A stretch of 63,323 nucleotides of DNA, counting the filler, from Kipferlia bialata (taxonomy: Eukaryota): assembly GCA_003568945.1 (NCBI GenBank). It is 5 parts of 5 records of this genome, joined end to end, with 100 filler letters (N's around TTAATTAATTAA, not from the genome) between each part and the next. Parts side by side here need not be neighbours in the genome. Positions count along the whole stretch, not along the records: positions 1 to 14,367 come from BDIP01000827.1; positions 14,468 to 28,831 come from BDIP01000828.1; positions 28,932 to 43,277 come from BDIP01000830.1; 2 more parts are not named here. The stretch is one strand, 5' to 3'. Made by a program: the position numbers and the translations under genes. A model generated the notes under the pieces. That model saw only the letters and a list, made by a program, of their open reading frames with translations. It was not told the origin of the DNA and made no database searches. Of the stretch, positions 70 through 35,267 are shown piece by piece. The first letter of the stretch is position 1. Every line of letters starts with the position of its first letter.

Positions 70-1186
70 CTGGCAGCCCCAGCACTCCGTTGGTGGCGAT
101 ATCCATCTTGATGAAGTAGCGCACGTTGTTGCCGGCCTGGCCTTCACCGTCATCATCGTAGTGTGCCTCGCATACAACATCTCTGGCATGAGAGAGAGGG
201 AGAGAGAGAGAGAGAGAGATGCCTCGCATACAACATCTCTGATATAAGACTCTTATGTATCACTCTTATGATAAGAGAGAGAGAGAGAGATGCCTCGCAT
301 ACAACATCTCTGGCATGAGAGAGAGGGAGAGAGAGGTATATATATATATCATTACCATGATTCCGACATGTATCATACCTGCCCGGTATCTCGTATGCAT
401 GCAGCTCCTCAGACATGGACCAGGGAATGTTGGAGGGGACCTCGACCTGGCATAAAGGGGTGTAGAGAGAGAGAGAGAGAGAGAGAGAGTATATATATTC
501 CCTACATTGTATAGGGAATGTTGGAGGGGTACCTCGACCTGGCATATAGGGGAGTAGAGAGACTCTCTCTGAGAGAGTACTGGAAGGACCAACCTGGATT
601 GGGAAGCGAAGGGTCGACCTAGCAGCCACTTCTGTCACTCTCTCCTCCCTCATGAGGTTGATGGTGAAGATGGGGGTACTGGAGGGGTGAGGCAGAGCCT
701 AAATAGGGGGAGAGAGAGAGAGAGATATGGGAGATATAAATAGCAACGACAGTGAGTATAGACGTCGAACGGGATCCAATTAGTAGTGTAGATATTGAAT
801 ACCTGTGCACTGCAAGATGGTGCTTTCTGTTGTGATTGTCGCTGTAGCACGTGTGCTCCTCCCCGCAGAGCGTTATCGTCACGCTGGGTATCAGAGGGTA
901 GAGAGAAAAGTCACCGAAAGTCGCGAGTGTGAGAGATATACTATTGAGACAGAGAAGGGGGATAATCCCGCCCTACCAGTTCAGAGTGATGTCCGTCTGA
1001 GGGGTGTAGGTCACCACGGCCTGGATGGTCTCTCCTGACAGTGAGGTGCGGACCAAAGAGTCAACAATTTTCTAATCTGGCACAATATGCATCCATATAT
1101 ACATATCGTGGCACACCTGGGAAGTAAAGAGGCACAGGCCTCCCCCACTCCACGCTCATCTCGCCATCTGTCGTGAATAATCCCAT
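70..1186 (-). CDS. Arrestin N-domain-containing protein, multi-exon, 3' end outside window
   Basis: Hand-spliced exons read MGLFTTDGEMSVEWGRPVPLYFPG|ETIQAVVTYTPQTDITLNW..MTITLCGEEHTCY..STLRFPIQ|VEVPSNIPWSM..|..NNVRYFIKMDI. This resembles the arrestin-N pattern Y-x-PGE-x-V-x-G-x-V, L-x-G-x-E-x-T, F-P-F-x-x-x-LP-x-x-LP-x-S and I-x-Y-x-I-K. GT-AG introns. Confidence 0.7.
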
Positions 1187-1710
1187 CTCAACGTGTAATA
1201 GAGACTTGCATATGTGATGCTCATTGACGCGAGTAAACGGACCGTTTGAGACGTCGAATTAGTCCATTGGTCTATAAATAGACATATAAAATTAGACATA
1301 CTACTGGTATATTTATAGCAGTGAAGCATTAAAAGGAGTCCCAGTGGTTCCTTTTAGCCAAGAATCACCCAACTACTAGGTCTTGACAATGATCACGGTC
1401 ATCTTTCGAGTTTGGTACTGCAAAATTGACACTGTTAAATGAAAGCCTCAAGTGCTTTGAGTGTGTGAGACGCCACTGTGATCGATACGATATGGCACAT
1501 GTAGATAGTCCCTCTATTGTGGGACCATTGAGCATCGTCTTCAGTACAACACCACACAGTTCTCCATATGAGTACAGGGTAAATGTATTGGATTGGGATA
1601 TCAAGCAAAAATACTGTTGGCTGAACGTGAAAGAACATACATCCACAAAAATCTTCGTGGAATATTCCTCACTCTCTCCTTTTCAACTTCAGACTGATAC
1701 CCACCAGACA

Positions 1711-2806
1711 ATGGTGAGTGCATAATAATGAGTGTATGGGGTTGGGATGTATGTTCTTGCCATAGTGATTGTCCTCACATATATCGATACGGCATGTAAC
1801 AATCATGTGAAGTGTGTGATTCTAAGAATAGAAACGTGCAGGGAACTGTACACCGCTTCTTTACTCACTGTAGTCACCTCCATATTTCGGTCTCTCCCAC
1901 TCTCTCTCCCCTTATCTCCTCCTTCCATTCCCTAGCTCTCTTCTGATTCAGCAGGGAATACCGATTCTAGCCATCCGCCTATATGTCTCTCGACGCATAA
2001 TCCCCCCTTCATCTCTCTGCCCCCCCCCCCCTCTCTCTGCCTCTCTCTCTCTCTGTGGCATCCCCCTACATCTCTTTGTATAGGTCTTCTTTCCCTCAGG
2101 GAACTGCTGCCTCCTACTACTCACTCTCTCTCCCTACATTATTGTGTATGTGAGATAGTATGTATTTCTCTCATGCTAGGGAACCGCTGCCTCGTATGTC
2201 GCCCCTTCCAAGCCCAGGTCATTCCTCACAGCCATCAACTGCATGGACGGGAGGTATGCACTGTGTACATTATATAGTATACTAACTGTAATGATGATTG
2301 TTTCTATGTATGTCCCCAACTGCATGGATGGGAGGTATTTTCATACGTATACTATATACTATTAAGTAATATCCTTGTATGTCACACGCTTCTCTACCCA
2401 CTTTCCCTCTGCTCCCCCCCCCAACCTCTCCCTCTAGTATCAAGGCACAGGTCGTACTGTGGTCTATCTCTCCCTATTCTCTCTCTTACCCTCTCATCCT
2501 CTACTACCAGGACCCAGATCCAACTAATCAGATGGATCGTACACTTCTTTGTTTTCACTCCCTCTCTCTCTTTCTCTCACTCTATCTCTCACTCTATCTC
2601 TCTATGCTCCTCTAATACCAGGGCCCAGATCCCACTGATCAGGTGGATGATGGAGAAGTTTGAGGTATGAATATATGATATTATATCACTAATGCTGACC
2701 TCTCTCTCCCTCTCCCTCTATATGTGTGTATATTTACCATTCCAATATATACTATTCCTTATGTCTAACAATAGGGTGACTACGTAGACTCCATCACCGA
2801 GGCTGA

Positions 2807-2842
<36 letters not shown>

Positions 2843-4355
2843 GTGTCGTATATATATATATCTATATGTATTATACTCTAACATATCTAATTATAGGGTG
2901 ACTATGTGGACTCCATCACTGATGATGACCTCTCTATCTTCCTCTATCCCCCTCTCTCTCTATATATATAATGACATATATATGTGTGGGTGTACTATGT
3001 ATATATATCTAACGCCAGGGTGACTATGTAGACTCCATCACTGAGGCAGGGCCTGTCAGGTTCTTCGCCATGGGAGACAGTGCACCCCAGAAGCACAGGT
3101 GGATATAATATATTCCATGCATAACAGATACTGTCTCTCGATAGTGCATGTGTGTATATATGTTATATCCACTCACCCCAGAGACATATATGCCAACATG
3201 ATGGAGAGGATCGACATCAGTGTGCACAAGCACGGGAGCAGGTAGAGGATACATATAGTATAGTATATATATACTATAATATGTACTATATATGTATATA
3301 TATATAGGATAGACATCAGTGTGTACAAGCATGGGAGCAGGTGGGTATTTATATGTATATATTTATTATATATATACTATACTATGTAATATATGTATAT
3401 CTATGTATGGGATCGACATCAGTGTGCACAAGCACGGAAGCAGGTATAGTATCCATATAGGTCTACATTCACAGTTTATCGTCTCTGAGAAAGCACGTTC
3501 TCTCTCTCCACACTCTTAATAGTTCTTAACCCCAGGGTCATCATCATTGCTGCCCATCCATCCTGTGCTGGCAATGTGTGCTGTGACAAGGATCAGGTAT
3601 ATACTATATATATATACTATATTATATAGATACTATATATATATAGTTTATATAGAGTATATATAGTATGCAATGTGTGCTGTGACAAGGATCAGGTATG
3701 TATATTGCTATATGAACTCTCTATATACGTACGTACATATAGTATGTCCCATTAATTACATTCTATGTGTACTGTGACAAGGACCAGGTATGAGATATAT
3801 ATGTGTTGATTAATGCGTGTGATTGTTACTATATAGTTCCATGTATTATTTGCAAGTATGTATATGTGTGTTGTGACAATGACCAGGTATCGTGTGTTCA
3901 CGTCTATCCATATATACATATAGCATCTGATAGCTCTCTAGTAGTATATTTCGAGACTACCACCATATATATATGAATTTTGAAGTTGTATATACAATTG
4001 AATTAGTTGTAACCCCCAGAAGACCCAGCTGCACCAGGCCGTGAGGACTCTCAAGGGTCTGTACCCATCCTGCAGGGTGGAAGGTACTCTCTCTCTCTCT
4101 CTCTCTCTAACTCTAACTCTAACTCTATGGATATTCGTATACCTAGACACATACTTAGACTTCTCGTCTTCTCTCTCTCCCCCTCTACACCCTTAATGCC
4201 AGGTGTATGGGTGTCTCTCTAACTCTACACCCTCCATTCATTTATACATTGGTCGCTCTCTCTGTCCCTCTACACCCTTAATCCAAGGTGTGTGGGTGTG
4301 GCCTGACAGTGGCAAGGACTGGGAGGACGTGGAGGTGGTGGTCATAGCGGAGTAA
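1711..4355 (+). CDS. Putative carbonic anhydrase, prokaryotic beta-CA-like family (Pro_CA_2-like), about 8 exons
   Basis: Spliced product M|GTAASYVAPSKPRSFLTAINCMDGR|AQIPLIRWMMEKFE|GDYVDSITEAGPVRFF..|..ERIDISVHKHGSR|VIIIAAHPSCAGNVCCDKDQ|KTQLHQAVRTLKGLYPSCRVEG|VWVWPDSGKDWEDVEVVVIAE*. Contains the C-x-D-x-R and H-x-x-C zinc ligand motifs of beta-type carbonic anhydrases. The ATG-only first exon at 1711 is inferred. Confidence 0.8.
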
Positions 4356-5013
4356 GATGCACTCTATCATGGCGTCCCTATCTGCCTCTATATTGAAGAG
4401 ACTCTCTACTTGAGAGAGAGAGAGAGATGGAGGTGGCAAGGACTGGGAGGACGTTGAGGTTGTAGTCATCGCAGAGTGAGGGGGAGATAGAGAGAGAGAG
4501 AGAGAGATTAAGGTCGTAGTCATAGCAGAGTAGGCAGACAGATGCTTGATGGTGTATTAATAGACAAGACAATTACCTGAGGAAGTGTGGTTTTAGTATG
4601 GACTCCATAGTATGGAGTACGAATCATACTATGGAGTGTGTGTTGTATGAGATGATTAATGAATTTATGAGAGTTCTCTCTGAGAACTATCAGGCATTGT
4701 GGATACTCTACCATTGATATACGATAGGGCTGATGATCCCAAGTATTCAGCCAAGACCCAGAGTCATGTAATAATTATCATTGCTAACCGGCCTATTGCT
4801 TCCACCAATACTGATGGTGTTGATGATAGTGATTTTCAGCCATTGGGACTTCATCAGCATTGCTGACAGCAACACTACAGTATAGTACATACTCTATTTA
4901 CAACAAGAGTGATATCCTCAGACGGCGGCCACCTCTCACAATCTCCAGTGGAGATTCTCCACTGACACTCTCTCATTCACTGTCTTATAGTCACAGTATA
5001 TATACTAGACCTA

Positions 5014-5818
5014 ATGGATCCAGCAACACTGCGTGAGAGGGCTGTCCACGCCCTCCGCTACTCCTTCCTAGGGGATTCTCTCTCCATGCCTGTGCACTGG
5101 TACTACAGCGTGGCAGACATATACAAGGCATTTGAGGTGGGTTAGTTACCTTCAAAAGCACACATTCACCTAACCCCTTAGAGTATAGAACACCATAGTC
5201 ACCTCTTATGATACAGGGTGGTGTCACCAAGCTGGAGTCCGCCCCCACCCTCCACCCCTCCTCCATCATGTCCCTACACTCCACTGCACATGGGGGGAGA
5301 GAGGGGACAGAGGGAGGTAATAGTGATACTAGGCCTACTAATACTAATACTATTGCTGATGAATACCCCTCCTCCATCATGTCTCCAGAGCACATGGGGG
5401 AAGGCAGGGTCTCTTTGGGAGGTACTACAATATATGTATTGGTAATTACCATAACTATTTTACTAATATATACTGCACATTGGGGCAGAGAGGGTACATC
5501 TGGAGGTAATGACACTAGGCCTAATAATACAGATACTATTGCTGATGAATACCCCGAGGTATACATTTTTCCTATACACCGTAGAATAGTGACACACTAG
5601 TACGTATTGTATGTGATCATAATATTCATAGGGATGGACGCTGCACCTGGGGGTAGGCAGGGTACTTTTGGAGGTATTAGTACCAGTTAGTGGGATACAT
5701 TTATAACTATATGTAGTACTGATTACAGGCACCACGGAGATAGTGGGTGACGTGATACTCAAGGGCAAGAGGCAGTACTGGGGTGTGGCCAACATGCACT
5801 ACCACCAGGGGATGAAGG

Positions 5819-5850
<32 letters not shown>

Positions 5851-7674
5851 TTGATATTGTATACAGAGCTGAATACCCTTTGAATTCAGTGTGATTGAAT
5901 CACTGATTCTAGTGCAGACAGTCGTCATATATACCCAACATGCACTACCACCAGGGGATGAAGGTGGGGGTTGTGTGTGATACAGTGCTACATTAACCAG
6001 TGATCAATAATGATTAATCCGTTATTAATAATCACTGTAGATTATGTGTAATTATACTGACATGCACTACCACCTGGGGATGAAGGTGTATATATTCATT
6101 GTATACAGAGCTGAATTCCCTTTGAAATCCGTGTGATGATATTGCAGACAGTAGACAATCTTCCCAACCTGCACTACCATCAGTGAATGTGCAGGGCTTA
6201 TGAATATTCTTATACATTAATCACTGTACTACAGTCTGTAGATTCTGTGAGATTAGACTGACACATAGGCAGGAGAGAACACCCTCAACCTACAGTGTGC
6301 CAGACTGGTACTCAGGGAGGTGGCACAGGTATCATTGTCAACCAGTCATATTCATTGAGTACTAACTTATCAATATTTACTATTTAGTGATTCAGTTTTC
6401 ATACACTGCCTTAGGTATCTGATACTTTACCTAACACCAGGGCCCCTACAACGCCGACACCTTCCTCTCAGACACATATATGTATATTCACTAGCACTTA
6501 TTATTTACTATTCAACCTATGCAAGGTACTACATTCTCCCTACCACCAGGGCCCCTACAACCCAGACACCTTCCTCGCTGACTACGTCGCCTACATGACT
6601 GCTGACCCCCCTGCATACCATGACACATATGCAGAGTCGTTCCACAGAGGGTTCTTCGACAACATGCAGGGCGGAAAGTACGTTATATTGCGAAGAATAC
6701 TACCCTATACAGTGTAGATGTGCTCTCCACAAGTATTTCTTGTAATTACAGTCTAACTTGTAATATACAAGTTCACTTGCCGATATATCCAGCAAGAACC
6801 TTAGTAGCAGTTACAGTACCGGTGATTCTTACTCTAGGGATCTGCACGAGTGCGGGGCAGCCACGCATGACACAGCATCCATTGGGGGTGAGTAGTGTAT
6901 ATTGTGTAGCACATACAGTATCATAGCATTGAATCACTCTTGACAAGAATCTTGTACATTCACTGATGACACTGTGAAGAGGTGTTGTATGTGTATAATG
7001 AACCTCGTCTCACACTCAGGTCTTGCCACCATAGCACCCCTGGCCCTACCCTCCCTTCTCAGAGGCATGTCTGTAGTAGATGTCCAGAGAGTCTGCCGCA
7101 CACACCTGCACCTTACACACCCATCTGATACTCTTTACAGTGTGTGTGACGACTATGTGAGTCTGATCTCTGAGCTGCTACACATAGAGGAGGGTATAGA
7201 CCCTAGTACAATTGTAGAGGCATACCTCCTCAGCGCATCTCCCACTGCCACACCAGCAGAGTGGATGAAGAGTGCCAAGGACACTGAAGTAGTCGGTGGT
7301 GTCTACAGCCCTGCCTGCTACATATCGGACTCGTGGCCATCCACACTCTACCTGGCATACAAGTACCTACACTCCACTGGTCCAGACTCTGTGAAGCAGG
7401 GTCTCCTTGCCAACGCCAATGTAGGTAAGTGAAAGACGATATTAGTCGCCAAGACGTCAGTCTCTCAGCTGGTAATGGTATTGTACACTCTTACTGAATA
7501 ATTGTAAGACTACTGTATATACATACTAACCCAGGTGGTGACAACTGCCACAGGGGTGCAGTCCTGGGTGTGATACTGGGCCTATGCACTGTGGACACTG
7601 AGGCTGACACTCTCTACTCTGGCCTTGTAGAGCATGACGCCATTGAGAAGGAGATACAGACAGCCATAGAATAA
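5014..7674 (+). CDS. ADP-ribosylglycohydrolase (ARH/DraG/crystallin J1 family)
   Basis: Exons encode FLGDSLSMPVHWYY, HYHQGMK|AGENTLN, HDTYAESFHRGFF, SPACYISDSWPSTLYLAYKY and LLANANVG|GDNCHRGAVLG, matching the GDAL..P and N-x-GGD-x-x-x-RG motifs of this family. Stop TAA at 7672-7674. Confidence 0.88.
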
Positions 7675-8012: not shown

Positions 8013-8871
8013 CTACTGCTCCCTCTTGGCAGCTGGGGCCCTGTCTCCACCTCTGTCTCCTCTGTTGCCAAAGGAGCGCTTGCCTAGAGGTTAATACTAA
8101 ATACCTCTCGCATTCAAAAGTAAACAGGAGCGCTTACTGCAGCTAGAGGCTACAGAAGATATAAATATATATATTGTGTTGGTACCTCTGAAGCCTCCAC
8201 GTCCGCCTCTGCCACCACGGAAGCCACCACGGCCCCTGCCGCCTCTGAAGCCACCTCTGCCTGGGGTTACAGGGAGAGTGACAAGAAGACTCACACACAT
8301 AATAGAAGAAGACACTTATGCCTGGTGATACAGAGAGAATGAACAGCACTAACTCAATAAACACACTTCTAATTGAAACCCAAATAATGAACTGTAAAAC
8401 GTATAGATGCATACCTCTGCGGCCACCCCTGCCGCCTCTCGTGCAAGGTTATGTATATATGTATAATTCTATGTATATGTATATATGAATAATACTACTA
8501 TACATATATAGTGCATACCTCCACGGCCACCCCTGCCGCCTCTCCCTCCCCTTCTTCCTCCACGGCCACGACCACCACGGCCTCCCCTGGGGTGAGTAGG
8601 CTCTACACACGAAAACTGTATATCTACAAAATGATACCCGCTGAATGTAACACAAAACACATGGCTAGATCAATACACTATAACACTATAACAATAATGC
8701 ATTACTATTATAATACCTGAATCCCCCGCTCTGTCTGTGTCCAGACCATGATTCATAGATACACATAATTAGACCAGCAAATAATCATATATTACTGTAT
8801 CTATCACGTTATTATTACTATATTGTACCTGAATCCGCCGCTCTGCCTGTGTCCAGACCATGACACATACT

Positions 8872-8902
<31 letters not shown>

Positions 8903-10520
8903 AACTTTAGAATGTATTGCTATATATATATAGTACCTGAATCCCCCGCTCTGTCTGTGTCCAGACATGCCTCTCTATCTCTCATATTCACACGAAAGAT
9001 ACCTCATAGACAGTATATAGTACAGGTTAACATAGAAATACCTGAATCCCCGCTCTGCATTCTAGTATAAGTAACTACTATTAACTACTACTATACCTGA
9101 ATCCGCCGCTTTGTATACACGTATAGGACTAATATTATATGTAGTACCTAAATCCGCCGCTCTGTCTGTGTCCAGACATGCCTCTCTGTATATCTCTAAT
9201 TCATACAAAAATACTTCACATATAGAAGTATATAGTACAAATTAACAGAGAAATAACTGAATCCCCGCTCTGCATTCTAGTATGAAAAACTATTATGAGT
9301 TACTATTTCAATACCTGAATCCCCGCTTTGAATACACGTATAGGACAAATATCAATATAGTACCTGAATCCCCCGCTCTGCATTCTAGTATAAGTTTCAA
9401 TACCTAAATCCAGCATAAAATTACTATATAGTACCTGAATCCCCCGCTCTGCCTGTGCCCAGACATGCCTCTGTCTCTGTCACCCTCTGTCCTGGGGGCA
9501 ACATAGGACATCATCTGAGGGGTGAGGTTATACATGTATGTAGAATGAGAGAGCGACAGTATAATGGAAGAATTATGAAAGGGCGACATATGACATCATC
9601 TGGGGGGTGAGGGAATATATTCAAATGCTTATATACTATAAGTATGTAATAGTTACAAAGGTTTATAGGACATCATCTGAGGGGTGAGGGATATATATAT
9701 GTATATACATTATTAATACACTAAGAATAGAGTTATGGTTGTAATTGTTACACAGGCCCATAGGACATCATCTGGGGTGAGGGTACTCATATATTCAGCT
9801 AGAGAGAGAGAAACACAGTATATAATGGAAACACACACTGCAAGAATTATGAAAGGGTAAAATAGGACATCCTCTGAGGGGGGTGAGGGTACATACACAT
9901 ATATACTCGGTATATATCAACAGTCACAAAGGTCCGTAGAACATCTACGGTGAGGTTACATCAGTCAATGTATGTAGAAAATCGATGTTCTTATTGATAT
10001 ATAGTCACTATATATACCTGGTTCTCTGGGCATATGTCTGCATCAGATGGCAGCACCAATATCACATACGTATATACATGTATATATATGTGTATTAATA
10101 CATATGTATATATATGTGTGTGTAGACCTGGTTCTCTGGGCATATCTCTGCATCCTCGGGTAGCACGACAAGGCCAGCCTTCCCAGAGGGGACAGAGGGG
10201 GGGTACTCAGTGCCCACAAACCTAGGGGTTAAGAACCGTAAATATATATATATATAAATAGACATATATATATATAGAGAGAGAGAGAAAGGACAGAGGG
10301 GGGGTACTCAGTGCCCACAAACCTAGAGGGTTAGGACTACAGTAACAGGTTTGCATATACCGAGATATTACCTGTTTGCCTCGAAGTTGTATCCGATGAG
10401 GTCGTCTCTACCAATATTATTACATATACTTATAATTATTACAATGGATATATATATGAGTATATATAATTTTGTACCTGTTTGCCTCGAAGTTGTATCC
10501 GATGAGGTCGTCTCTACCAA

Positions 10521-10551
<31 letters not shown>

Positions 10552-10682
10552 TATTACAATGAATATATCTATAATACATATATAATGTACCTGTTTGCCT
10601 CGAAGTTGTACCCGATGAGGTCGTCTCTCTCGATGGCCCTGCCAATGAGGGACCGGAGCACAACGGTGGCATAGCTAGTTGT

Positions 10683-10733
<51 letters not shown>

Positions 10734-10852
10734 TGAGTGAGTGAGAGAGACTCTTCCAATGAGGGACCTGAGCACAACGGTGGCATAGCTGGAGATTAGA
10801 GAGAGAGAGAGAGAGANNNNNNNNNNNNNNNNNNNNNNNNNNNNNNNNNNNN

Positions 10853-10893
<41 letters not shown>

Positions 10894-12430
10894 GTGAGTG
10901 AGAGAGATTCTTCCAATCAGGGACCTGAGCACAACGGTGGCATAGCTGCAGGTCAGTGCATATAGATTTGTAGTATATGGAGACATATATCAGGGACCGG
11001 GGAGCACATGTGGTTGGAGTACCCTTTATCGAAATATGCCAACATAAGTGTATCTATATACAACCACAGTACCTGCTGGATCCGAGTGTGAATCTGACGT
11101 GGAGAGAGACAAAGTGGCCATCCCTTGGGGGGACAACGACCTGGGTGAGGTATGGTAACATATGTAGTGAATAGTTAATGAGCGTCAAGCACTTGTGTAG
11201 ACCACAACTGATAATTGTGCACATGTACAGTACAGAAATAGTATCGTGCAGTTATTTAAATGATAAAGTGGATACCTTCACGGGCTCCTCAACCTTCTCC
11301 TCTGGCTTGGCCTCAGCCTAGATAGTGAGAACATGGGTGTATACATATGATATGACATAATGAAAATACATACGATATGATATAAGAAAGAAACTCTGAA
11401 CATGTACAATCTTTGGATAAGTGATATGTTTACACTCTTCACAAAGGACAAATTGCTAAATGAAGAGACCATAGTGGCTATACCTCAACCTTCTCCTCTG
11501 GCTTGGCCTCAGCCTCAGCCTGGGGTTAACAAGTGGAATTAATCGATGCATTTGTAATACACAATACCTTCATCTCTACGTCTCCCTCGGCCACCACGGC
11601 CTCAGTCTTGGGCTCAGCCTTGGGTAAGAACAGATACATACCAACCATTACGGATACGGGTGTACGTCAATATCTCTATTTCACTACCAGAGAGGGTACG
11701 GCAATTACACAAATGCTAAAGAATACGATATGAATACTTGATAGTGTCCAGATAGTAAAGAAAAATGTATATACCTCGGCCTCTGCCTCTGCCACTGGCT
11801 CAGCTGCCTTCTTCTCAGGCTTGGTCTCCTCAGTGACAGGCTGGTATGAATATATACATCTATATATATATAATATGAATAGGGGTGTGGAGGCAGAAAT
11901 GAACGACTAGCGGTATTACATGGTGAATAATGAGATATACAAGAGAGATTGTACCTCGGCCTTAGGCTCCTCAGCCTTCTCCTCTACATGCTTCTCAACA
12001 GGCTTCTCCTCCTCCTTCTTCTCCTCTACCTTGGGCTCAGGCACAGGCTGCATGTGAGTATACATACATATACATATGTATCTATCATTAGTAACGAGTA
12101 TTGCAATGGTATATCACAATATATGTATATATTGAGGGAGAGAGAGAGAGTATATGTACCTCAGGGAGTGGCATTGCCACGCACACCTCCTCAGGGAGAG
12201 AGAGAGACAGTGCCTGGTTGGCACGGACAAAGGCCTCCTCGGGGAGAGAGAACATGGTCCTGGGAATAAGGGTGTAGGGGGAGAGCACCAGTGTAAAGTA
12301 CCTTATCCCTTTCCTACAAATCTATTATTGACTATTATAATTACTAAACATATATATGAATATGTGCAGTATATATTTGTGTATACCTCTTGACCTTGTG
12401 TACTACCATGGCCATGTAATGGATTAATGC

Positions 12431-12471
<41 letters not shown>

Positions 12472-13049
12472 TCTAATACAAATTGTACATATATACCTCT
12501 TGTCTTTGTGCACCACCATGGCCACATCGATGTCAGACACGGAACGGATGACCTAAGGGTTAGTGTATACGCATACACAGCACATATTAACGGAGAATAG
12601 TTTCATACATTTACAGTACCCTAGGCCGAATGCTTCTTATTAAAGAGAAAGGAATTACATAGGTCTATACACATATAAACCTGTCTGTATCTTCCAGTGA
12701 CGCACATGTCCTTGGGTGCCCTAGATAGAGGACTATGCACACCTATGCACTCTATATATACATGTATATATATACATATATATAATGTATATATACCTGT
12801 CTGTATCTGCCTGTGACACACATGTCCTTGGGTGCCCTAGGAAGATGACTACTATATATACATACACACCCTACATATACGTATATACAGTGTATACTTA
12901 CACACCCTACATATACGTATATACAGTGTACACATATGTACTTGTATGTATATGCATATATACCTGTCTGTATCTCCCAGTCACACACATGTCCTTGGGT
13001 GCCCTGGGCAAAAGACTTTCTATATCTATATGCTCTATATGTCTATGGA

Positions 13050-13086
<37 letters not shown>

Positions 13087-14285
13087 TATACCTGTCTGTA
13101 TCTCCCAGTCACACACATGTCCTTGGGTGCCCTAGGTAGAGGACTACTATATATACTTACACACCCTATATATACATATATACAATATATACATATAATT
13201 ACCTGTCTGTATCTCCCAGTGACGCACATGTCCTTGGGTGCCCTGGGCAGAGAGTCAAACCCATGCTCAAAGCCATCGGCCTTGAGCAGCTCGTTGATGT
13301 ACTCGCCTAGGGGGTTAGAGGAAGACATAAATATATCAGGCTATATGTATACTTGTAGATATCCATGTACCTATCTCTCCCTTGGGCAGCAGGACTATCC
13401 TACAATAATAACCATTTACAAATATTTACATCTACGATACTATTTGTATACATATATATACATGTTCCTATCTCTCCCTTGGGCAGCAGGACATCCCTAT
13501 ATAGAAATATTCATACATTCCATACACGCACATACACGAATAGTAATAATATCAGGGATACATATGTGTACCTATCTCTCCCTTGGGCAGCAGGACATCG
13601 TGTCCGACAAGGGGCAGTACCAGCTGGGACATGTCTGAGTGTAAGAGTAATGTATGTATATACATATATAAGACACTAAAGATGTATATATGTACACTTG
13701 TATACACATAAGAATGATTTAGTACAATCCGGGACATGTCTGGGGTTAGACACCAAATGTAAAGTGAATATATAGTATATATACTATATATAGTATATAT
13801 AGTATATATAGTATATATACTATTCATGTCAATGTATAGGCAGTGACACCCTGAAGTATGTTGATAGAGATGCATATACCTGACTCATCGAAGGGTGTCG
13901 GCTCAGGAACCTCCTCCTCCTTCTCCTCCTCCTTACTCTCTCCCTCTCCCTCCTTCTTCTCTCCCTCTCCCTCCTTCTTCTCTCCCTCTCCCTCCTTGCT
14001 CTCTCCCTCTGTCTCCTTGCTCTCTCCCTCTACCTCCTGCTTCTCCTCAGAGGGTGTGGGGACATGCACAGGCTGAAAAGTGAGGACATACATGTATATA
14101 AATAGACAATTGTACAAATGAAATACTCTAAATAACAATCTATCCATATATACAGTGGGGGTGGGCACAGACACAGGCTGAAAAGTGAGCATATATATGT
14201 GTATAGAGAGAAATGAATATGAAAATAGAATACTCTAAATGACAGTCTCTCCATATATACAGAGGGTGGGGACATGCACAGGCTG
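8013..14285 (-). CDS. PUS7: tRNA pseudouridine synthase PUS7/TruD, C-terminal part, with E/K-rich inserts and RGG tail; 5' end beyond contig
   Basis: Exons QLVLPLVGHDVLLPKGEI|GEYINELLKADG..DMCVTGRYRQ and VRFTLGSSS|YATVVLRSL match the TruD C-terminal motifs (VVLPLPG, GxYR, F-x-L-x-x-S-x-YATxxLRE). Then GGFRGGRGRGGFRGG repeats and last exon GKRSFGNRGDRGGDRAPAAKREQ*. Confidence 0.82.
8713..9890 (-). repeat. Array of partial exon-end copies around one PUS7 tail exon
   Basis: About 11 copies of (plus strand) tacctgaatcc(c/g)ccgct at 8713-9450 and about 5 copies of taggacatcatctg at 9504-9880. Confidence 0.9.
12679..13250 (-). repeat. Five copies of exon end (LP)RAPKDMCVTGRYRQ + GT donor
   Basis: acctgtctgtatct..catgtccttgggtgccct at about 12679, 12795, 12962, 13090 and 13201. 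Confidence 0.95.
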
Positions 14286-21369: not shown

Positions 21370-24300
21370 GACCCTTCCACCGTCAAGGGCAGTCTTGTGG
21401 TCAGGGGCAACCAGATGCTTGTGGAGCTGGCCAAGACCCTCAACGTGGGGTACAAGGCAGTGGGTGAGCTGGTCGTGGCATCCAGCCCAGAGGAGCTGGT
21501 CGACCTGAGGAAGATCTACGAGCAGGGTGGGTTTTGGAGTAATTGGAAGTGATTGTCCTCTCTCTCAGTGTTTTCCCTACTATATATATATACGCTTATG
21601 CATTAGGCCTTGCTAAGGGCATCTGCCACCCACTCTCTGTTCTGAGTATACACAATTGTGTGTTCTGTGCTTAACCACCAGGACTCGCCAAGGGCATTGA
21701 GCTGGAGTGGTGGGACGCTGAGAGGATGTACGCTGAGGAGCCACACCTGGCCCCTGGTCTAGTAGGGGCCATCAATGCACCCACAGCCGGTGTCATCAAC
21801 CCCTACGAGGTATGGACTCTCTCTTCACCCTTCCCTCTCTCTCTCAATCTCTCTTTCACACCCACCCACACACTCTCTCTCTCTTCCTTCTCTCTGTCAG
21901 TGTCTCATCCCCAGCTTGTGTACAAGAGTGCCGCCTGTGCCGTCCTCAACGGATGCCACCTGGCCACAGCAACAAAGTGCGGCACATTATGTATATATAC
22001 TTTGATACTATTTCACTACTGTCCATCGTCTACTGAAGTGCTGGTCTGTCTCTCACCCCAGGTTCCTGTCTGCCTCTCTGGTGCCTGGCTCTGATGGCCA
22101 GAGACTGGTCCACACCGACAAGGGCGACTACTGGTGCAGGTACCCATGTCACTACACACTCAGTGACATGCCATACTGTCTATACATACCCTCACCCCAG
22201 ATACCTTGTCAACAGTGCTGGTCTCTATGCCGATGATGTTGCCAGGGGCACAGAGGGAGTGGAGGGTGCCGAGGGATGGGAGATCAGGCCAAGGAAGGGA
22301 GAGGAGTACGTGCTCGACAGGAGCGTGGCCACACGCTGTCCATCCAGGTTCGTTTATCACACACACACCATCTCTCCCTCACTCTCACCGTCACTCTCTC
22401 TCTCTCTCCTTCTTACCCTCCAGGATCATCTTCCCCATGCCTGATCCCGTGACCAAGACCAAGGGCACCCTGCTCATCCCCACAGTGGATGGGACATGGC
22501 TCGCTGGACCCACAGCTGACATGGTGCGTGTATGTGTATATATAGATATTGTGTGTATGTATTTGTCCCCATCACCAGTGCTGACACCTAGGTGACCGAC
22601 AAGACCGACACGGCCACCTCCAACGAGGGCCTGAAGAAGGTGTTTGGTCTCGTCCGTAACCTCTGTGACAAGGTCGGCCCCTGGGACATCATCTCCTCCT
22701 TCGCCGGTCTGAGACCCGCTGCATACAGACTGGACGACAAGCCCGGCACCAACGACTTCATCATCGAGAGGCACGGCACTGCTGTGCTGGCCGCTGGCAT
22801 CCAGTCCCCAGGCCTCACTGCCTGTCCTGCCATTGCTGAGAGGGTCATTGCCCTGCTGACCGAGGGTGGCCTGGACACAGCCACCCCCAAGGCAGGGTTC
22901 CAGCCTGCCCTGCACGGAGGGGCAGAGGGAGGCATCTCCAGGCTCAGCGACCTGACTGAGGAGCAGCAGAGGAGCAGGTGTGGATGCAGTAGCTGATGTA
23001 GTGTCTATCTCTTTGTATGTCTAACTCCCAGGGCTGCCGCTGACCCCCGCTACACCAAGGTGGTGTGTCAGTGTGAGGGAGTGACAGAGGGCGACATCCA
23101 CAGGGCCATTGACCTGGGCGCCAAGTCTCTGGACGGAGTCAAGTTCCTCACAAGGGCTAGGTATGTATTTTTATTGGTCACTCTCTCTCTCTCTCTCTCC
23201 AAGTCTCCCTCTCTCTCACCCTAGGATGGGACCCTGCCAGGGAGGCTTCTGCACAGAGGGTATCATGGGGATCCTGGCTGAGAGGCTCAACATCGGCCTC
23301 GACAAGGTGGGATCACCACTCCATAGTGCTTACATATTATATGTGTATGTATACATGTATGTATGTATCTGACCCCAGGTGTCCAAGATGGGAGCTGACT
23401 CTGTCCTCTCTGTGGGTGAGATTGGCACACACATCGAGGCCCCAGTGCCAGTGGAGGTGGGCACATGTAGTGTATACATTACACACACACTCATCCATAT
23501 ATACACCATGCATCCCCCTGACCCCTTAGGCCAAGATTGCCGCCACTGAGCTCGAGGGCCAGGCCGACGCCCAGTCAACCCTGGACTCTCTCTTCGACAC
23601 ACCCATAGACACAGTGGTTGTGGGCGGGGGTGCAGCCGGTCTCAGTGCCGCCGTGGCTCTTAAGAAGCAGGGGGTGGAGAGGGTTGTCGTGCTCGACAGG
23701 AACACTGCCGGTGGCGGTGTCCTGCTACAGTGCATCCATGCCGGGTTTGGTCTCAGGAGGTACAAGGAGGAGCTGACAGGGCCCGAGTATGCAGAGCGCC
23801 TCAGTGCCGAGTGCCGCGAGTCTGGGAGTGAGGTCTACTACGAGGCCTTCATCCTGGACATTGCACACGAGGAGGGCGTGGAGACCCCCTTCTCCCTGTC
23901 CTGTGTGTTTGGGGGCAAGGGCATAGCCACCCTCAAGTGCAGGAGTGTCGTCTACACCGCAGGGTGCAGGGAGAGGACCAGGCACACTATCAGGATCCCA
24001 GGTGGAGTCTCTACTGTTACTACCAACCCTTTGGTATATGGATTATATCCCCCTCACCCCCAGGTACCCGCCCCAGTGGTGTGTACACTGCCGGCCTGGC
24101 CCAGAAGCTCATCAACTCAGGTGGCCAGCTGGTGGGCAGGAAGGTTGTCATCCTAGGCAGTGGGGACATTGGCCTGATCATGGCTAGACGGAGTGCTCTG
24201 GAGGGGGCTGAGGTGGTGGGTGTGTACGAGCTGCTGGGCAGGTGCAGCGGCCTCGAGAGGAACAAGGTGCAGTGCCTGGATGACTTCAACATCCCCCTGA

Positions 24301-28931: not shown

Positions 28932-29061
28932 TATATCTATATCTATATCTATATCTATATCTATATCTATATCTATATCTATATCTTTATCTATATATAT
29001 CACAATCTATATATCTATATCTATATCTACACTGATATATATGTCTATACCTATATATTTA

Positions 29062-29094
<33 letters not shown>

Positions 29095-29106
29095 GTCTAT
29101 ACTTAC

Positions 29107-32100
29107 CTATGTGGTCCCCGTGTCTGCCCTCGACGGTGTCGGCCTCAAACTGTAGGTTGTCGGCATACTCAACCTGGGAGTGAGTATATACATACATATA
29201 CAAACGTGCCAAAGAGTAAGTCATTAGCATACTCTCAAGGTATCTGTCATGAATAAGCATATATATATATAATATTATACATGTAGAATATAGATAGAAT
29301 AGCTGACATCACACACCAGCTCCTCCTTGGCCGTAAGGCATCTGTCACGGTATGGAATATATAATATTGACAGAATATGGAATATACAACACACCAGCTC
29401 CTCCTTGGCCTTCTCCGACATCTCAGGGTGCTCCTTGTCAAGGATCTGACGCAGCCCGGTGTCCTGTTGTGAGTATACAAGTATATACATATACGGAATT
29501 ATGTATATATACGTAAATCTATATATATATATACGTATACACGTAACAACACACAGTAACCACACGCTGGAATCACACTCACACTGAATCTGATACTGAC
29601 GCAGCTCGGTGTCCAGATATATGAGTATACAAGTAGAAATACGTAACCAACACCCTATGCTATCCAGTACATAAATCACTATATAGAAAGTGCTGCTGAG
29701 AGTGTAGACAATCGTGCCATTATTGACAGATAACAATACTCATGAAGAAACATGTGTGTCCGCGTAAGCTTGTACAGAAACCATATTCAAGGCACAGCAT
29801 TCTATACTATAAAAATACTTATAGCAGGCTCCTACTGACGAATAACATTGCATGTCACTTACCCTTGAGAAGTTGTGGGGGTCCCTAACAAGCCTGGGAT
29901 TAGAGAAGAAAGAGTGAGGCGGTGGAGTGAATATCATTACATACTGAATGTGTTTTGGACATGGAAATCGAAACAGTATATCACTGAGTATCATTGAATA
30001 CATCAACTTACACAATGATAGAGTGAACCATATATATTTAGAATATATATAAATATATTTACTCCCACACCGTACCTCTTTATGCAGTCCTCCTTGTAAG
30101 CCATGGGGTTGTTCTCATCAGCTGCATAGATGGCCATGAGCTCAGCCCTGTTGGTAAGATATATATGTATGTGCACATATACGTATATATGAATATGTAG
30201 AGAGAGACTGCTAGATGTAGATGACCTACACCATGAGCTCAGCCATAGTAGTAGGAGAGGAAGAGAGAGAGAGATCGAGAGGGAGAATGATCAAATAGAC
30301 CATAGGCTTACCACTATCCAAAAGATTCACATAATACACATATGTCAATGGAGTATATAAGTATACATATATTACTGTTGTATATACACCTTGACTTGTG
30401 GTCCTCAATGTCATCGGCAGCAGTATATACAATAATGCATATATGTGTATATATACTAATACATATACCCTACATACCTTGACTTGTGGTCCTCCATGTC
30501 ATCAACTGGCACCACACGGACTAGGCCATCACCGTCTGATATGAGACTGTTGTAGAGGTGTACATACATTTGTATTCACTATCAGTGATTAAGTGTAGTA
30601 GTAAACACAAAACCGGTATCATATACTAATCACTAATACGTACCATTACGGCCACAGAAGTCCTCCTGGTTGCAGTTGAACGCCTGGATCAACCCTGGGT
30701 GAGATACACGGAGGGAGATTACAGAAAGGTAAGGTAATGTGTACATATATATGGAGTACATTGCAGAGTATGTCAATATATGTCAATGAGTAGATATAAT
30801 GTATGAATCTTATCCCGGCCAGTTTGGTAAGTTTGAAACAGGAGCTTATGCATACCCTCATCTCCTAGACGCAGCATGTCGGTGACCTCCTCTGGCATCT
30901 GCGAGATAAGAGAGAGATGGGGAAGAGAAGGAGAGAGAGAGAGTCAGATGAAGAGATACTTGATGTGGGGTACCTGTGCGAGGTTGAGCTGCCAGAACAG
31001 AGACATGAGGCTGGGGGTGAGAGAGGTACATCAGAGAAACATACACACACACATATTTATACTGATATCTCCACTTGATGTGTATATATACGAATTCTAA
31101 TGCCATACACATACCCTCCGCAATTCTCGCATCTGGGTAACTCCTCATCTGTGCCCACATAGCCATAGCCACCCCTCTGAGGTGAGTCTGTCACACAATA
31201 TGTATAGCATACATTGTATATATGGATTAATGTTTATATCAATCCTTGGACAGATAGCCATACCCACCCCTCTGAGGTGAGAGGGAGATAAGTAGAGAGA
31301 GAGAAGGAGAAAAAGAGAGAGAGAGAGACCTCGTCAGTACCCACATAGCCATACCCACCCCTCTGGTGTGAGAGAGAGGAAGAGGCGGGGAGGGGGGAGA
31401 AGGGGAGAGGAAGGGAGAAGGGGAGAGGGAGAGAGACACCCGCACATCAATCCGACTCCCTAATGACTATTCAGAATCCTGCATAACCAAAAATGTCACG
31501 TTACACTATCATGTGTATACACATACATACATGTATATGCATACATACCTTGGAGTCAAGCAGTGATCCGATCACGGGCTCAGTTGTGGCCCCCTCCCCG
31601 CCCTCCTCTCCCTCTCCCTCACTGTCCTCCATGCCCATGCCCATCCCTGCCATGCCCTGTACCTGGGCAGTGTCCTGGCCCTAGGGTCAGTACCAGTATA
31701 TGTATATTAGTATTAAATGATTCCTCGAACATATAATACTAGTGTAATAGTATAGTATATGATGCAGATGCCCTGTCCCTGGGCATTGTCCTGGCCCTGG
31801 TGTCAGTATCAGTATCAACTATATATAATAGATGATACCTCGTATATAGAGTAATAGTGTATTAGTCTATGATGTAGACACCCTGTCCCTGGGCAGTGTC
31901 CTGTCCCTAGTGTCAGTATCAGTATCAATAATACATATGTGGTGGTTCCATGCTTACGATGCATCAGAATCAGTGTCAGTTATCATAATCATATGATACG
32001 TTGCATATGATGCAGTATGTAGTATCAATATCAGTCTTATACATACATTCTTGTATATCAGTATCAGTATCATATTGTACCTCGTATATGATGTAGTATG

Positions 32101-33847
32101 CAGTGCGGTAGTGCCCGTCCAGGCACCTGTGCAGCAGGGCACCCATGTTCTCCTTCACTGACATTAAGGGTGTAGAGGGAGAGAGAGAGAGAGAGGGAGT
32201 TGTTATGCATTATATGTCCCTGACGTGTGGGTCCTAGGGCACTCTATATTTACACAAATACTGCACTTTCATCAATGCATACATAGGTAGGTATGTGTCC
32301 AGTACCTGATATGGTGTCCTTGTCCACACACTTCAATGATTATGCCCGGTAGAGAGAGAGAGAGAGAGAGAGAGGTACCTGGTATGATGTCCTTGACGGG
32401 AGGGTCCTCGGGGATGACAACCTCAGCCTCTGCCTCAACCTCCTCAACCTCCTCCTCACTCTCCTCCCCCTCACTCTGTCTCTTGATGGCTGGGGGGGCG
32501 GGGGATCCCTTGGCTGCGTGGAACCTGCAGTACCCAGCAGCATTCAGCTAGAGGTGAGTGGGTCACTGCATATACATATTATATACATTAAGAAGAGTAT
32601 TGCTTACATATGCATGTATTATATGATATTGACCAGTCAGTACCCAGCAGCATTCAGCTGGGGTGGGTATTAACATGAATGGATACTATTTAAAAGTCAC
32701 ACCATGCATGTGCATAGATAGGGAGATAAACTTGAGGATTTAGATTGTATTTATGTGTATGTAGACTGCATATACCTTTGTCTGTGTGCATGGGTCTCCA
32801 TTCTTCTTGATTCCCCTACACACAGTCACTTCCTGAAGGTAAGAAGATACGTATTCAAATGTGTTTCATCTTTGTAGGAAGGAAGGACACCAACAATATT
32901 TCCTCCTCACCGTGAGGGGAGGGATAAGGGGGCTCAAAGAACACTTCCATGGCCATATACACGTAATTATACATATGCCAAGTCATATACAAACATACAT
33001 CCTCCTCTTCCTCCATAACTGGCAGCATCCCCTATAATACCACTCATATGCCATATACGTATGTATACAACCATTCCTCCTCCTCCTCCTCCATCACTGG
33101 TATCATCTCCTCCATATGTATCATATGTTCACTAATATACTAATCAATAGAAGTATATATATAAGTGTATATGTATCATTATACCTCCTCCTCCTCCACC
33201 ATCACTGGCAGCATCTCCTCCAGCATCTCTGGACAGGGGGGTGGGCACTTGCCACCTGGGGTTCCGGTATGCACAGGGGCAGCCTGGGGTCAGTATCAGT
33301 ACCAATAAATATGAAATATATATACAAATATTGATGAATATATCTATAATGGGCATATATAAATACATATGTCTAAAGAAATACAGGGAATACATATATT
33401 GTAGTATATATATACACTTCCCCTGCCTTGGGTCCCCTGGGTGCCTTGCCTGGAGGTGCACAGCGGATGGCCTGAGGGTCAGAGAAGAATACATGTGTGT
33501 ATGAGTATATATACAATAGAAATACATATTGAAACAATATAGAGACTGATACTGATACTAGGTGTGCACATAGGATGGCCTGAGGAACAGAGGAGGCTAA
33601 GGAAGAAAACATGGGGGTATATTTACGGTAGACTCTCTTCGTATTTGCCAATACCTTGTCCCCAGCCAGCTCGTAGTATCTCTCCCAGGCCTCCTCCTCA
33701 CAGGATATGGTACATGGTGTGTATATATACAATACAACATATACATATATACATATATATCCATTTACCTTCTCCCCTGCTAACTCGCAGTATCTCTCCC
33801 TGGCCTCCTCCTCACATGATATTATATATATAGAATATGGTATATAT

Positions 33848-33881
<34 letters not shown>

Positions 33882-34238
33882 CCATTTACCTTGTCTCCTG
33901 CTAACTCGCAGTATCTCTCCCTGGCCTCCTCCTCACATGACAGGACATTATGAACTATATATATATATATATATATATATAGATAGATATACATATATAT
34001 ATATAGATACCTTGTCCCCTGCCAGCTCCCAGTATCTCTCCCTGGCCTCCTCCTCACAGGACAGGACATGGGTGGCCTCCATACCATCGGCCTTCTTCCA
34101 GCTAGAGGTTAGAGGGTGATAGAATATCACTGACAGTGATATCATACACATTAATGTATACATATAGAGATAGGGGGGGGGGAGAGAAGACATGGGTCTT
34201 CTTCCAGCTGATATCAATTATATATACATATAGGTAGA

Positions 34239-34278
<40 letters not shown>

Positions 34279-34378
34279 ATGAGTGGCCTCCATGCCATCG
34301 GCCTTCTTCCAGCTAGAGGTTAGTGTGATGTATACGTATATGAAAGAATAACAATATATGTATACATATATATATGAA

Positions 34379-34415
<37 letters not shown>

Positions 34416-35267
34416 GAGAGAGAGTGAGTAAATGTGTGGCCTCCATACCATCGGCCTTCTTCCAGCTGGTATAAGAGGAGCTGGGTATATATAGATATAT
34501 ATAGGTATATATAGATATATATATAATATGGAAAGAGAGAGAGAGATAATGACGATCTTCACGATATGGTATTTCTTCCAGATAGAGGTGGGAGAAGAGT
34601 GATATTAATAAATATACAAGGAGAGAGAAAGAGGGGAGAGGGGGGGTAAGCAACTATTCAGGAGGAATACATATACTCTGTGTGCCGTTACATATGTATA
34701 TGTATTACCTCTGTGTCCCGTTCTTGTCTGCCTTGTTGATAGAGTAATACATATGTTAATATATATATTGCAATTCTGTATATTTATAGAGAGAGAGAGT
34801 ATTAATTAATACATATATGCCTCTGTGTCCCATTCTTGTCTGCCTTGTTGATGTATGTCCTGCCATCATTGCCACGCATCACAGTGCCTGTCAGGTTAGT
34901 GCCACATCATATACACTGTATATACTATATTCCTCATCTAGGATATGACTCTCATCATTGCCACGTATCACAGTGCCTGTCAAGTTAAGAATCACCTCAT
35001 ACACACTGTATATAGTATATATACACACTTGGATATGCCTCCCATATTGCTAAGAGTGAACTATTTTGTGTCTACTTGGATAAGGTTAGTCTTGTAATGC
35101 ATTGCGGGCAGTAGCAGAAGGATATGAGACAGAGCACTGCACACAGACAGTATTGTCACAGAGTGATCGGTTCCAAATCGAAGAAGAACCTCAGACTGAT
35201 ATATCTATCCCTTACCTAGCTCTGCAGCCTTTCCAGAGAGGGGGACACTGGGTCTCTTCTGAAACAT
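29107..35267 (-). CDS. Hypothetical multi-exon protein with N-terminal RPS..GNDG..NG..WKK motif and a CCCH-type (DUF5763-like) zinc finger; 3' truncated
   Basis: Exons [70 protein letters not shown] .. [29 protein letters not shown] .. acidic stretches; about 17 short exons with YTRAC-CCC-AG acceptors. Confidence 0.65.

Follow-up and report, generated by a model that had tools for sequence, protein, structure and literature searches.

Partial copies of exon ends in Kipferlia bialata introns appear to have diverged while coding and may descend from exon ends once in use in other alleles

Introns in parts of the Kipferlia bialata genome hold short, partial copies of the ends of their own neighbouring exons, which raises the question of how such copies arise and why they differ from the live exons as they do. 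We analyzed a window of 63,323 nucleotides (filler included) consisting of five joined scaffolds of K. bialata DNA, and focused on five genes:

70..1186, minus strand: gene of six exons with an open frame, which we take to be arrestin-like (label from the first-pass annotation)
1711..4355, plus strand: putative carbonic anhydrase gene (weak Pro_CA_2 match, E 0.11); the gene model has live exons at 1711-1713, 2180-2253, 2622-2664 and 3019-3098 (first four) and at 3182-3241, 3536-3596, 4020-4083 and 4288-4355 (last four)
5014..7674, plus strand: ADP-ribosylglycohydrolase gene (PF03747), eight exons
8013..14072, minus strand: 3' part of a presumably PUS7/TruD-like gene (label from the same annotation), modelled as 17 exons with an open frame
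29107..35436, minus strand: gene with DUF5763 and DUF1963, 19 exons

Open frames were retained in all five gene models, two of which matched public K. bialata proteins: P0001 (364 aa) is identical to the ADP-ribosylglycohydrolase model, and P0047 equals the DUF1963 model except for three amino acids at one donor. A candidate GC donor lies at 34820, within the span of the DUF1963 gene. Carbonic anhydrase exons 2-6 were spliced together in an RNA contig with no differences. A Pfam search of single short exons gave no support for the arrestin and PUS7 labels.

An anchored scan compared the 57 exons of these genes with their neighbouring introns, using codon-shuffled exons as the control. It returned 30 copies of exon starts lying upstream and 41 copies of exon ends lying downstream, with no copy on the wrong side and none inverted, against a chance expectation of 0.2 copies. 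One PUS7 repeat row, the same DNA as another match, was removed, leaving 70 copies for analysis. These measured 12-59 nt, all of them partial and none a whole exon, and splice signals were retained as AG in 27/29 start copies and GT in 34/37 internal end copies. The copies are real and far above chance. The first-pass annotation had described exons flanked by partial copies of themselves, with AG-bearing starts upstream and ends carrying GT or a stop downstream, and this description held, for a small majority of exons (31/57). Inverted fragment insertion is ruled out, with no anchored inverted match and two at threshold in a separate scan. The copies were distributed as follows:

220-238 and 291-309, minus strand: arrestin-like exon 6 start copies (anchored scan)
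504-538, minus strand: arrestin-like exon 5 start copy, gapped (scan)
2100-2116 and 2317-2334, plus strand: carbonic anhydrase exon 2 start copy and end copy, respectively (anchored scan, as for the next five lines)
2511-2537, plus strand: carbonic anhydrase exon 3 start copy
2775-2803 and 2897-2922, plus strand: carbonic anhydrase exon 4 start copies
3306-3340 and 3410-3443, plus strand: carbonic anhydrase exon 5 end copies
3670-3695, 3765-3787 and 3864-3886, plus strand: carbonic anhydrase exon 6 end copies
4433..4533, plus strand: carbonic anhydrase last-exon end copies, two in number
5472-5505, plus strand: ADP-ribosylglycohydrolase exon 2 end copy, with additional diverged copies close to 5390 and 5641
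5935-5963, 6060-6085 and 6164-6192, plus strand: ADP-ribosylglycohydrolase exon 3 end copies
6441-6473, plus strand: ADP-ribosylglycohydrolase exon 5 start copy
7761-7796, plus strand: ADP-ribosylglycohydrolase last-exon end copy
8717..9381, minus strand: array of PUS7 exon 14 end copies, six catalogued, with further short or gapped ones
9581..9873, minus strand: array of PUS7 exon 14 start copies, four catalogued
10018..10945, minus strand: region of PUS7 exons 12-13, each flanked by copies upstream and downstream
10910-10945 and 10753-10788, minus strand: PUS7 exon 12 start copies
10478-10515 and 10372-10409, minus strand: PUS7 exon 12 end copies
10291-10322 and 10018-10044, minus strand: PUS7 exon 13 start copy and end copy, respectively
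12387..14282, minus strand: copies of PUS7 exons 1-4
13092-13141, 12964-13010, 12797-12845 and 12681-12730, minus strand: PUS7 exon 3 end copies, mosaic by four-gamete incompatible sites
34011-34101, minus strand: live DUF1963 exon 4, within a copy region at 33655..34465
34432-34465, 34279-34312 and 34191-34207, minus strand: DUF1963 exon 4 start copies
33890-33948, 33769-33819 and 33655-33705, minus strand: DUF1963 exon 4 end copies
29317..34976, minus strand: the other 16 copies in the DUF1963 gene, of exons 3, 5, 6, 8, 9, 10, 11, 15, 16 and 18
21607..21622, plus strand: lone start copy with silent changes, belonging to an FAD oxidoreductase gene of a different scaffold (relaxed threshold only)
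near 57241, 60904 and 62485 (57229..62485), minus strand: three sparse copies outside the main finding

The repeat unit had a median of 106 nt (IQR 93-116) and consisted of 12-59 nt of exon end, the splice signal and ~76 nt of intron. Across 53 introns, length followed 132 nt plus 111 nt per copy (r 0.93). The trait had been called genome-wide; with a relaxed threshold, each of the five scaffolds did yield copies, but they were dense in two regions, and other genes in the window gave three copies in 107 predicted exons at the same threshold as the scan. The trait is thus patchy.

Tandem copies of this kind could be an assembly artefact, in which a mixed or diploid culture had its haplotypes strung together. 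The K. bialata genome is a short-read draft from a culture given as monoxenic and diploid by k-mers in the available text of PMC5874029, which favours this reading, as do the microsatellites within the arrays and the N gap in one of them (10817-10852). Read-derived contigs were examined for 1700-3248 only, and uncovered parts of that stretch carry no evidence. In a separate assembly of a DNA run, which may itself be the source of the present assembly, 2061-2802 (742 nt, the extent of this check on the arrays), holding four copies and two live exons, lay on one contig with no differences, at a depth of 366 versus 405 for a neighbouring contig. Moreover, the copies are partial, polar and stacked up to six or more deep, and only 1/70 has 31 identical bases in common with its exon. 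We regard an artefact as improbable to the point of being nearly negligible.

We then compared the copies with their live exons. The 70 copies carried 95 silent and 68 replacing differences (pS 0.223 versus pN 0.043; pN/pS 0.19, and 0.15-0.29 across six scoring settings), a silent share of 0.58, where neutral copies should give 0.26, or 0.39 when silent drift of the live exon is included. The excess persisted when CpG sites were removed (71/127 silent), for transversions alone (38/81), for unique changes alone (72/136) and under trinucleotide conditioning, and 400 simulations run through the same detector reached a maximum share of 0.53. CpG decay and detector bias are therefore ruled out as its cause. 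Changes unable to lie on the live lineage were also mostly silent (20 silent to 11 replacing, p 7e-6 versus 0.26); the strictest ghost-private subset stood at 11:16 (p 0.07). Thus, the proposal that the copies diverged while still coding stands. The accompanying description of the differences as nearly all synonymous fits carbonic anhydrase (24 silent to 5 replacing) and PUS7 (42:16), but not ADP-ribosylglycohydrolase (7:19), the DUF1963 gene (22:28) or arrestin (0:0). Among the last carbonic anhydrase exon and its two end copies, all of TAA, TGA and TAG are present, alongside silent codon changes. By BLOSUM score, replacements did not exceed random changes in conservativeness (p 0.35), replaced residues lay at less conserved columns only marginally (p 0.035; Fisher p 0.20), and no gradient of divergence away from the splice site was found.

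Could the copies be junction duplicates of the ordinary kind, evolving neutrally, with a silent excess that reflects silent drift of the live exon, decay of GC-rich third positions and shared ancestry among copies? The silent differences are lopsided, with live G/C against copy A/T at 61:16 (unique changes, 43:15), a direction that agrees with decay to A/T. Neutrality is also approached by ADP-ribosylglycohydrolase (pN/pS 0.62, within a range of 0.5-1.0 as the neutral model expects) and in part by the DUF1963 gene (0.32), and the strict subset is not significant. The neutral account is nonetheless rejected overall by base, CpG and trinucleotide conditioning, by the simulation and by the changes off the live lineage. 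Furthermore, the coding part of the copies was 92% identical, while the adjoining spacers had a median identity of 0.59, equal to the 0.59 background of unrelated spacers (8/64 above its 95th percentile), so that spacer homology was visible only in bulk. At pN 0.04 the spacers should be ~90% identical, and 0/64 reach that; a plain neutral duplicate cannot produce this combination. We consider the neutral account highly improbable.

Alternatively, the copies may be under present selection, being sometimes translated (in minor isoforms or another life stage) or often recombining into the live slot, so that A/T accumulates at silent sites and replacing changes are purged. Such selection would account for the lopsided silent changes and the saturated spacers, and copy splice sites score nearly as high as live ones (acceptor 6.9 versus 8.6 bits, donor 3.3 versus 3.7). 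What it lacks is a route to translation. AG was not in excess before end copies (17/41 versus a background of 0.44), nor GT after start copies (10/29 versus 0.40), which rules out use as mini-exons; 0/70 copies are whole exons, and three contain premature stops. One RNA contig, itself spliced and from a run that we presume to be RNA (no run is recorded as such), showed four junctions, used the live sites and skipped all six covered copies, although contigs cannot reveal minor isoforms. The exon-proximal (inner) site is the one used, and the two public proteins also fit the live exons. Present selection is, in our estimation, distinctly improbable.

The arrangement of the copies bears on how they were made. 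The first-pass annotation had proposed that, when a break falls within an exon, repair inserts a whole exon from a diverged allele or paralogue, splitting the old exon into two intronic halves with more decayed outer shells. As a general rule this split appears not to hold: 22/31 copied exons were one-sided, with start and end sides unassociated (Fisher p 0.26). Halves rebuilt the exon within 5 nt in 1/9 two-sided exons (0.95 expected by chance), with gaps of -2 to 132 nt. Among 18 families, outer copies exceeded inner ones in divergence in only 10, matched them in 4 and fell below them in 4, and no rank correlation was significant. Two features did survive: start and end copies were equal in number in 7/9 two-sided exons (p 0.02), and DUF1963 exon 4, alone among them, was rebuilt exactly from its halves.

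In a widened form of this proposal, a break in an exon would be repaired from a diverged allele, with synthesis overshooting ~75 nt into the intron and the end joined without homology, so that start, end or both are left as intronic remnants by independent events. This predicts both polarity and silent bias and agrees with the equal counts and the exact fit, with the absence of halves overlapping by more than 5 nt among the nine two-sided exons, and with a median gap between halves of 16 nt versus 24 nt expected (p 0.10). In mouse meiosis, according to the available part of 10.1101/2020.06.23.168138, offset breaks between homologues can be joined, with tandem duplication, which also favours it. 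However, besides the unlinked, one-sided copies, independent breaks should not reuse breakpoints, yet within families these recurred (mean difference 7.4 nt, where uniform breaks give 16.2; p 1e-4 by permutation). Copies also remained at or below 59 nt even in exons of 130-190 nt, and two protein searches found no paralogue donors. We judge this form unlikely; its two-sided, homology-guided version is the same as out-of-register exchange between alleles.

On balance, we lean towards reading the copies as ~106-nt junction-spanning tandem repeats whose coding part came, through out-of-register recombination, from exon ends in use in other alleles. Because differences from the live exon are mostly at silent positions, the copies are likely to have once served other alleles as working exon ends and to have been displaced by misaligned recombination. 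First, a rare duplication across a splice junction would be retained only in the observed polarity, since this leaves the reading frame intact and lets the exon-proximal site prevail. Second, this copy would become another landing site for a homologue's exon end, as allelic introns would be too diverged to pair. Wrong-register repair or crossover would then add a unit with the same breakpoint, and the same event would make the homologue's end live and leave the old one in the intron. Third, repetition would build arrays with a young, allele-like coding part and old or saturated intron spacers. Such exchange would feed itself, which would explain the patchiness. Four-gamete incompatible sites occurred in 1/7 multi-copy families.

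As donors, alleles fit better than paralogues, since two protein searches each gave one Kipferlia protein; paralogue donors for these two genes are thereby weakly ruled out, as long proteins can crowd such searches. No donor allele appeared in one sample's contigs (1700-3248), where the DNA run held no alternative letters, though contigs drop variants, or among 80 metagenome loci, which included no second isolate and only bacterial relatives at ≤51% identity. The exchange would require a silent-site diversity between alleles of ~0.15-0.2. An even allele swap predicts 1:1 rather than the lopsided silent changes observed, and the model must therefore include some further bias. Homologous recombination usually involves longer tracts than 15-55 nt, which also counts against this model.

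More tentatively, it is possible that the exchange acts as a self-feeding ratchet, in which each copy is a landing pad, the homologue's end goes live and the old one is demoted, so that hot genes would store, for each exon end, at least five alleles of the past, with introns gaining ~110 nt per event. One genome would thereby record population history. If this is right, ordered samples of past functional alleles would make diversity, sex and recombination readable in a protist with a single sequenced strain, and intron growth would have a countable route of ~111 nt per event. Splice-site choice is put to a natural test by the arrays as well: in this relative of Giardia, whose introns are short, copies score much like the inner sites and yet lose to them, which may point to cross-exon definition.

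Finally, we compared these arrays with known systems. In mutually exclusive splicing of tandem exons, copies diverge under protein-level selection, and whole exons with both splice sites are needed; with 0/70 copies whole and no AG/GT excess at breakpoints, this is ruled out. The trait had been thought undescribed. For Kipferlia, no description was found in the main texts of the openly accessible literature searched: "duplicat" is absent from the main text of the K. bialata genome paper, and the available parts of PMC6679479 and 10.1101/051292 do not describe the trait. The same search found no precedent for such density, two-sidedness or allele signature. The geometry, however, is already known from single human loci, as the accessible text of PMC1557585 and PMC2630376 indicates. 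In human F7 IVS7 (37 bp), LMNB2 (100 bp), PDGF (81 bp), CBS IVS13 and 6-16 minisatellites, the first monomer spans an exon-intron boundary (PMC1557585). As in Kipferlia, where we found direct tandem junction-spanning units with a splice signal, and extra sites left unused in the RNA contig, the unit holds the exon end and donor, extra downstream donors are mostly silent, and the exon-proximal site is used. Those are single loci with reiterated splice sites described as identical, whereas Kipferlia has copies at 31/57 exons on both acceptor and donor sides, with a silent-biased exon part and spacers at background identity rather than likeness over the whole unit; the main text of PMC1557585 does not contain the word "synonymous". 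Human CBS 844ins68, a skipped 68-bp junction duplicate proposed as a conversion donor to the live allele, has an upstream exon start spliced out and the inner site used, equal to one Kipferlia upstream copy; unlike Kipferlia, it is a single polymorphic copy with a harmful missense change in the skipped part, without arrays or silent bias in the text available (PMC2630376). Tandem duplication of proto-splice sites likewise leaves exon-like sequence inside an intron, but it creates a new intron with the next exon's start before the previous exon's end (PMC2891723, available part), whereas Kipferlia enlarges old introns; the opposite order in 7/7 introns holding both kinds of copy rules out this route of intron gain. 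In another protist, Tetrahymena, LRR genes multiplied exon-plus-intron units with 90-bp exons by unequal crossing over; in the available text of PMC6564038, the exons so repeated are complete and coding and belong to a single class of genes, whereas the Kipferlia units are partial, skipped copies in unrelated single-copy genes.

The window consists of five scaffolds with N spacers between them. Coordinates were used to set exon models for each of the five genes that the first-pass annotation names: an arrestin-like gene, a putative carbonic anhydrase, an ADP-ribosylglycohydrolase, a PUS7/TruD-like gene and a gene encoding DUF5763 and DUF1963 (the DUF1963 gene). The arrestin and PUS7 labels are putative. 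All five models have open frames. The ADP-ribosylglycohydrolase model reads identically to P0001, the public Kipferlia bialata protein of that name, which the long exon 7022-7423 matches, and P0047, the public DUF1963 gene product, agrees with its model except for 3 amino acids at one donor. The K. bialata genome is a short-read draft for which 124,912 introns are reported and whose k-mer profile is diploid (PMC5874029); the available main text of that paper contains no word starting with "duplicat". Individual features of these genes were as follows.

1711-2200, putative carbonic anhydrase: an intron directly after the ATG start codon; the protein starts MGTAAS, which we take to resemble an N-myristoylation motif.
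5014-7674, ADP-ribosylglycohydrolase gene: 45 further matches (45-55% identity over the alignment), the species-named ones all bacterial (e.g. Alteromonas, Marinobacter), although 7 introns interrupt the gene; it was likely acquired laterally and later gained introns.
11276-11519 (- strand), PUS7-like gene: two consecutive in-frame exons with 33 identical nt in common, a duplicate of nearly the whole exon that the model treats as coding; the region is of low complexity.
34820 and 33426 (- strand), DUF1963 gene: GC donors, the latter implied by P0047; the live donor of exon 3 is GC, but GT stands in the end copy of that exon, 112 nt away.

The 57 exons were compared with their own flanking introns in an anchored scan without gaps, which gapped copies escape. 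It detected 30 partial copies of exon starts, all upstream, and 41 of exon ends, all downstream, with none on the wrong side and none inverted, against 0.2 expected by chance from codon-shuffled exons. This bears out the proposed polarity of start copies with AG upstream and end copies with GT downstream; AG was retained in 27 of 29 start copies and GT in 34 of 37 end copies. Removal of one row, a second match on the same DNA, left 70 copies (12-59 nt) on 31 exons, while some gapped copies outside this count appeared in other comparisons. Copies repeat at a median spacing of 106 nt (IQR 93-116), and across 53 introns length rises by 111 nt with each copy from a base of 132 nt (r = 0.93).

Read contigs were compared over 1700-3248. 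One contig of a DNA run (X1) covers 2061-2802, including four copies and two live (working) exons, with 0 differences and a depth of 366 versus 405 for the neighbouring contig; X1 is possibly the source of the window, making this a second assembly rather than a second sample. An assembly artefact is highly improbable. A contig from a presumed RNA run (X2) joins carbonic anhydrase exons 2-3, 3-4 and 4-5 at GT-AG, continues into exon 6 and leaves out six copies, again with 0 differences. Because splice sites in copies score close to live ones yet are skipped, acceptors and donors alike are chosen by nearness to the exon, a choice that may reflect cross-exon definition. Acceptors throughout the window carry a branch-point-like motif at a short fixed distance before AG; such a motif near AG is described for Giardia and Trichomonas introns in the accessible text of PMC6679479.

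Over 2,020 aligned nt, copies and live exons differ by 95 silent and 68 replacing changes (pS 0.223, pN 0.043). The silent share is 0.58, whereas a neutral copy predicts 0.26, or 0.39 with silent drift in the live exon. The excess persists after CpG removal (71/127 silent, p = 1e-4), and likewise with transversions alone (38/81), under trinucleotide conditioning, in six scoring settings and against 400 simulations passed through the detector; unique changes are silent in 72 of 136 cases (p = 3e-4). Where the outer copy matches the live exon, and the change is therefore not assignable to the live lineage, 20 changes are silent and 11 replacing (p = 7e-6). In carbonic anhydrase, the final exon and the two copies of it carry the stops TAA, TGA and TAG. 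The claim that differences are mainly silent holds for carbonic anhydrase (24:5) and PUS7 (42:16), on which the signal rests, but not for the DUF1963 gene (22:28) or ADP-ribosylglycohydrolase (7:19). The strictest ghost-private subset (changes private to the copies) gave 11:16 (p = 0.07), silent sites are biased towards live G/C versus copy A/T (61:16), and replacements in copies showed no conservative tendency. A present-day function of the copies is distinctly unlikely.

Breakpoints recur inside a copy family (p = 1e-4), identity is 92% in the exon part of copies but at background level (0.59) in the spacer next to it, and mosaic structure is seen in one array. None of these patterns follows from a single neutral duplication. 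Plain neutrality is very unlikely. On the same three grounds, we lean towards junction duplication followed by out-of-register exchange with the homologue. The initial duplication, spanning a splice junction, would be survivable only in the polarity seen. Since introns cannot pair, the copy would then pair out of register with the live exon end of another allele, and each exchange would add one unit and turn the former live end into a copy. If the two ends of a broken exon were to land on start copies and end copies of the homologue, symmetric nesting would result. Exchange does not account for the G/C-live versus A/T-copy silent bias, for units so uniform in length or for the patchy distribution; no donor allele was found among 80 metagenome loci and no variant letters in the run contigs across 1700-3248. 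Independent overshoot repair is an unlikely though credible source of the copies. That exon ends are replaced as by a ratchet, with past ends archived in introns, is a tentative reading.

The first-pass annotation had proposed that an exon from a diverged allele or paralogue is inserted at a break, splitting the old exon into two intronic halves. The greater decay of outer copies that it noted is not significant: divergence was higher in the outer copies of 10 of 18 families, lower in 4 and the same in 4, with no significant rank correlation. Complementary halves fared unevenly. Copy numbers were equal on both sides in 7 of nine two-sided exons (p = 0.02), but gaps between halves ranged from -2 to 132 nt, a fit within 5 nt occurred once against 0.95 by chance, and 22 of the 31 copy-bearing exons were one-sided; start-side and end-side copies were unlinked (p = 0.26). 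Because two protein searches each returned a single Kipferlia protein, paralogue donors are weakly disfavoured. The symmetric nesting may be a special case of out-of-register exchange.

Under the identical scan, 107 exons of other genes (our own predictor, score at least 10, predictions unverified) held 3 copies. Copying is real there but about forty times rarer. Intron GC is 0.37 in copy-rich genes versus 0.44, and likewise 0.37 in one copy-poor gene. Other features of the window are listed here.

17071-17500: a predicted coiled-coil exon with a coding tandem repeat whose 138-nt unit occurs about three times, the copies being 65-75% alike.
21369-25642: FAD oxidoreductase gene, long and multi-domain (DAO and Pyr_redox matches), with short introns and a single faint copy.
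27961-28012: tandem duplicate purely of an intron start, 22 nt at the donor, period 30.
28932-29092: a 6-nt unit repeated about 27 times where a scaffold ends, adjoining a copy-rich gene.

Closed journals and supplements aside, the literature yielded no report of the copy trait in Kipferlia or of an allele-like silent bias in junction arrays. As far as the available texts describe them, human minisatellites span a donor in F7, LMNB2, PDGF and CBS (PMC1557585), and CBS 844ins68 is an acceptor duplicate with proposed conversion (PMC2630376); their geometry is that of the Kipferlia copies, at single loci. The Kipferlia arrays work like such junction-spanning minisatellites, minus one feature, units alike along their whole length. 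Offset joining between homologues is known in mice (10.1101/2020.06.23.168138, accessible part). Judging from the accessible portions, intron gain by duplication (PMC2891723) runs in the opposite order, and the 90-bp exon arrays of Tetrahymena (PMC6564038) comprise whole coding exons, whereas the Kipferlia copies are partial. The copy trait is real and unusual, with a geometry already known at single loci; its striking aspects are the density, two-sidedness and coding-like divergence of the copies.
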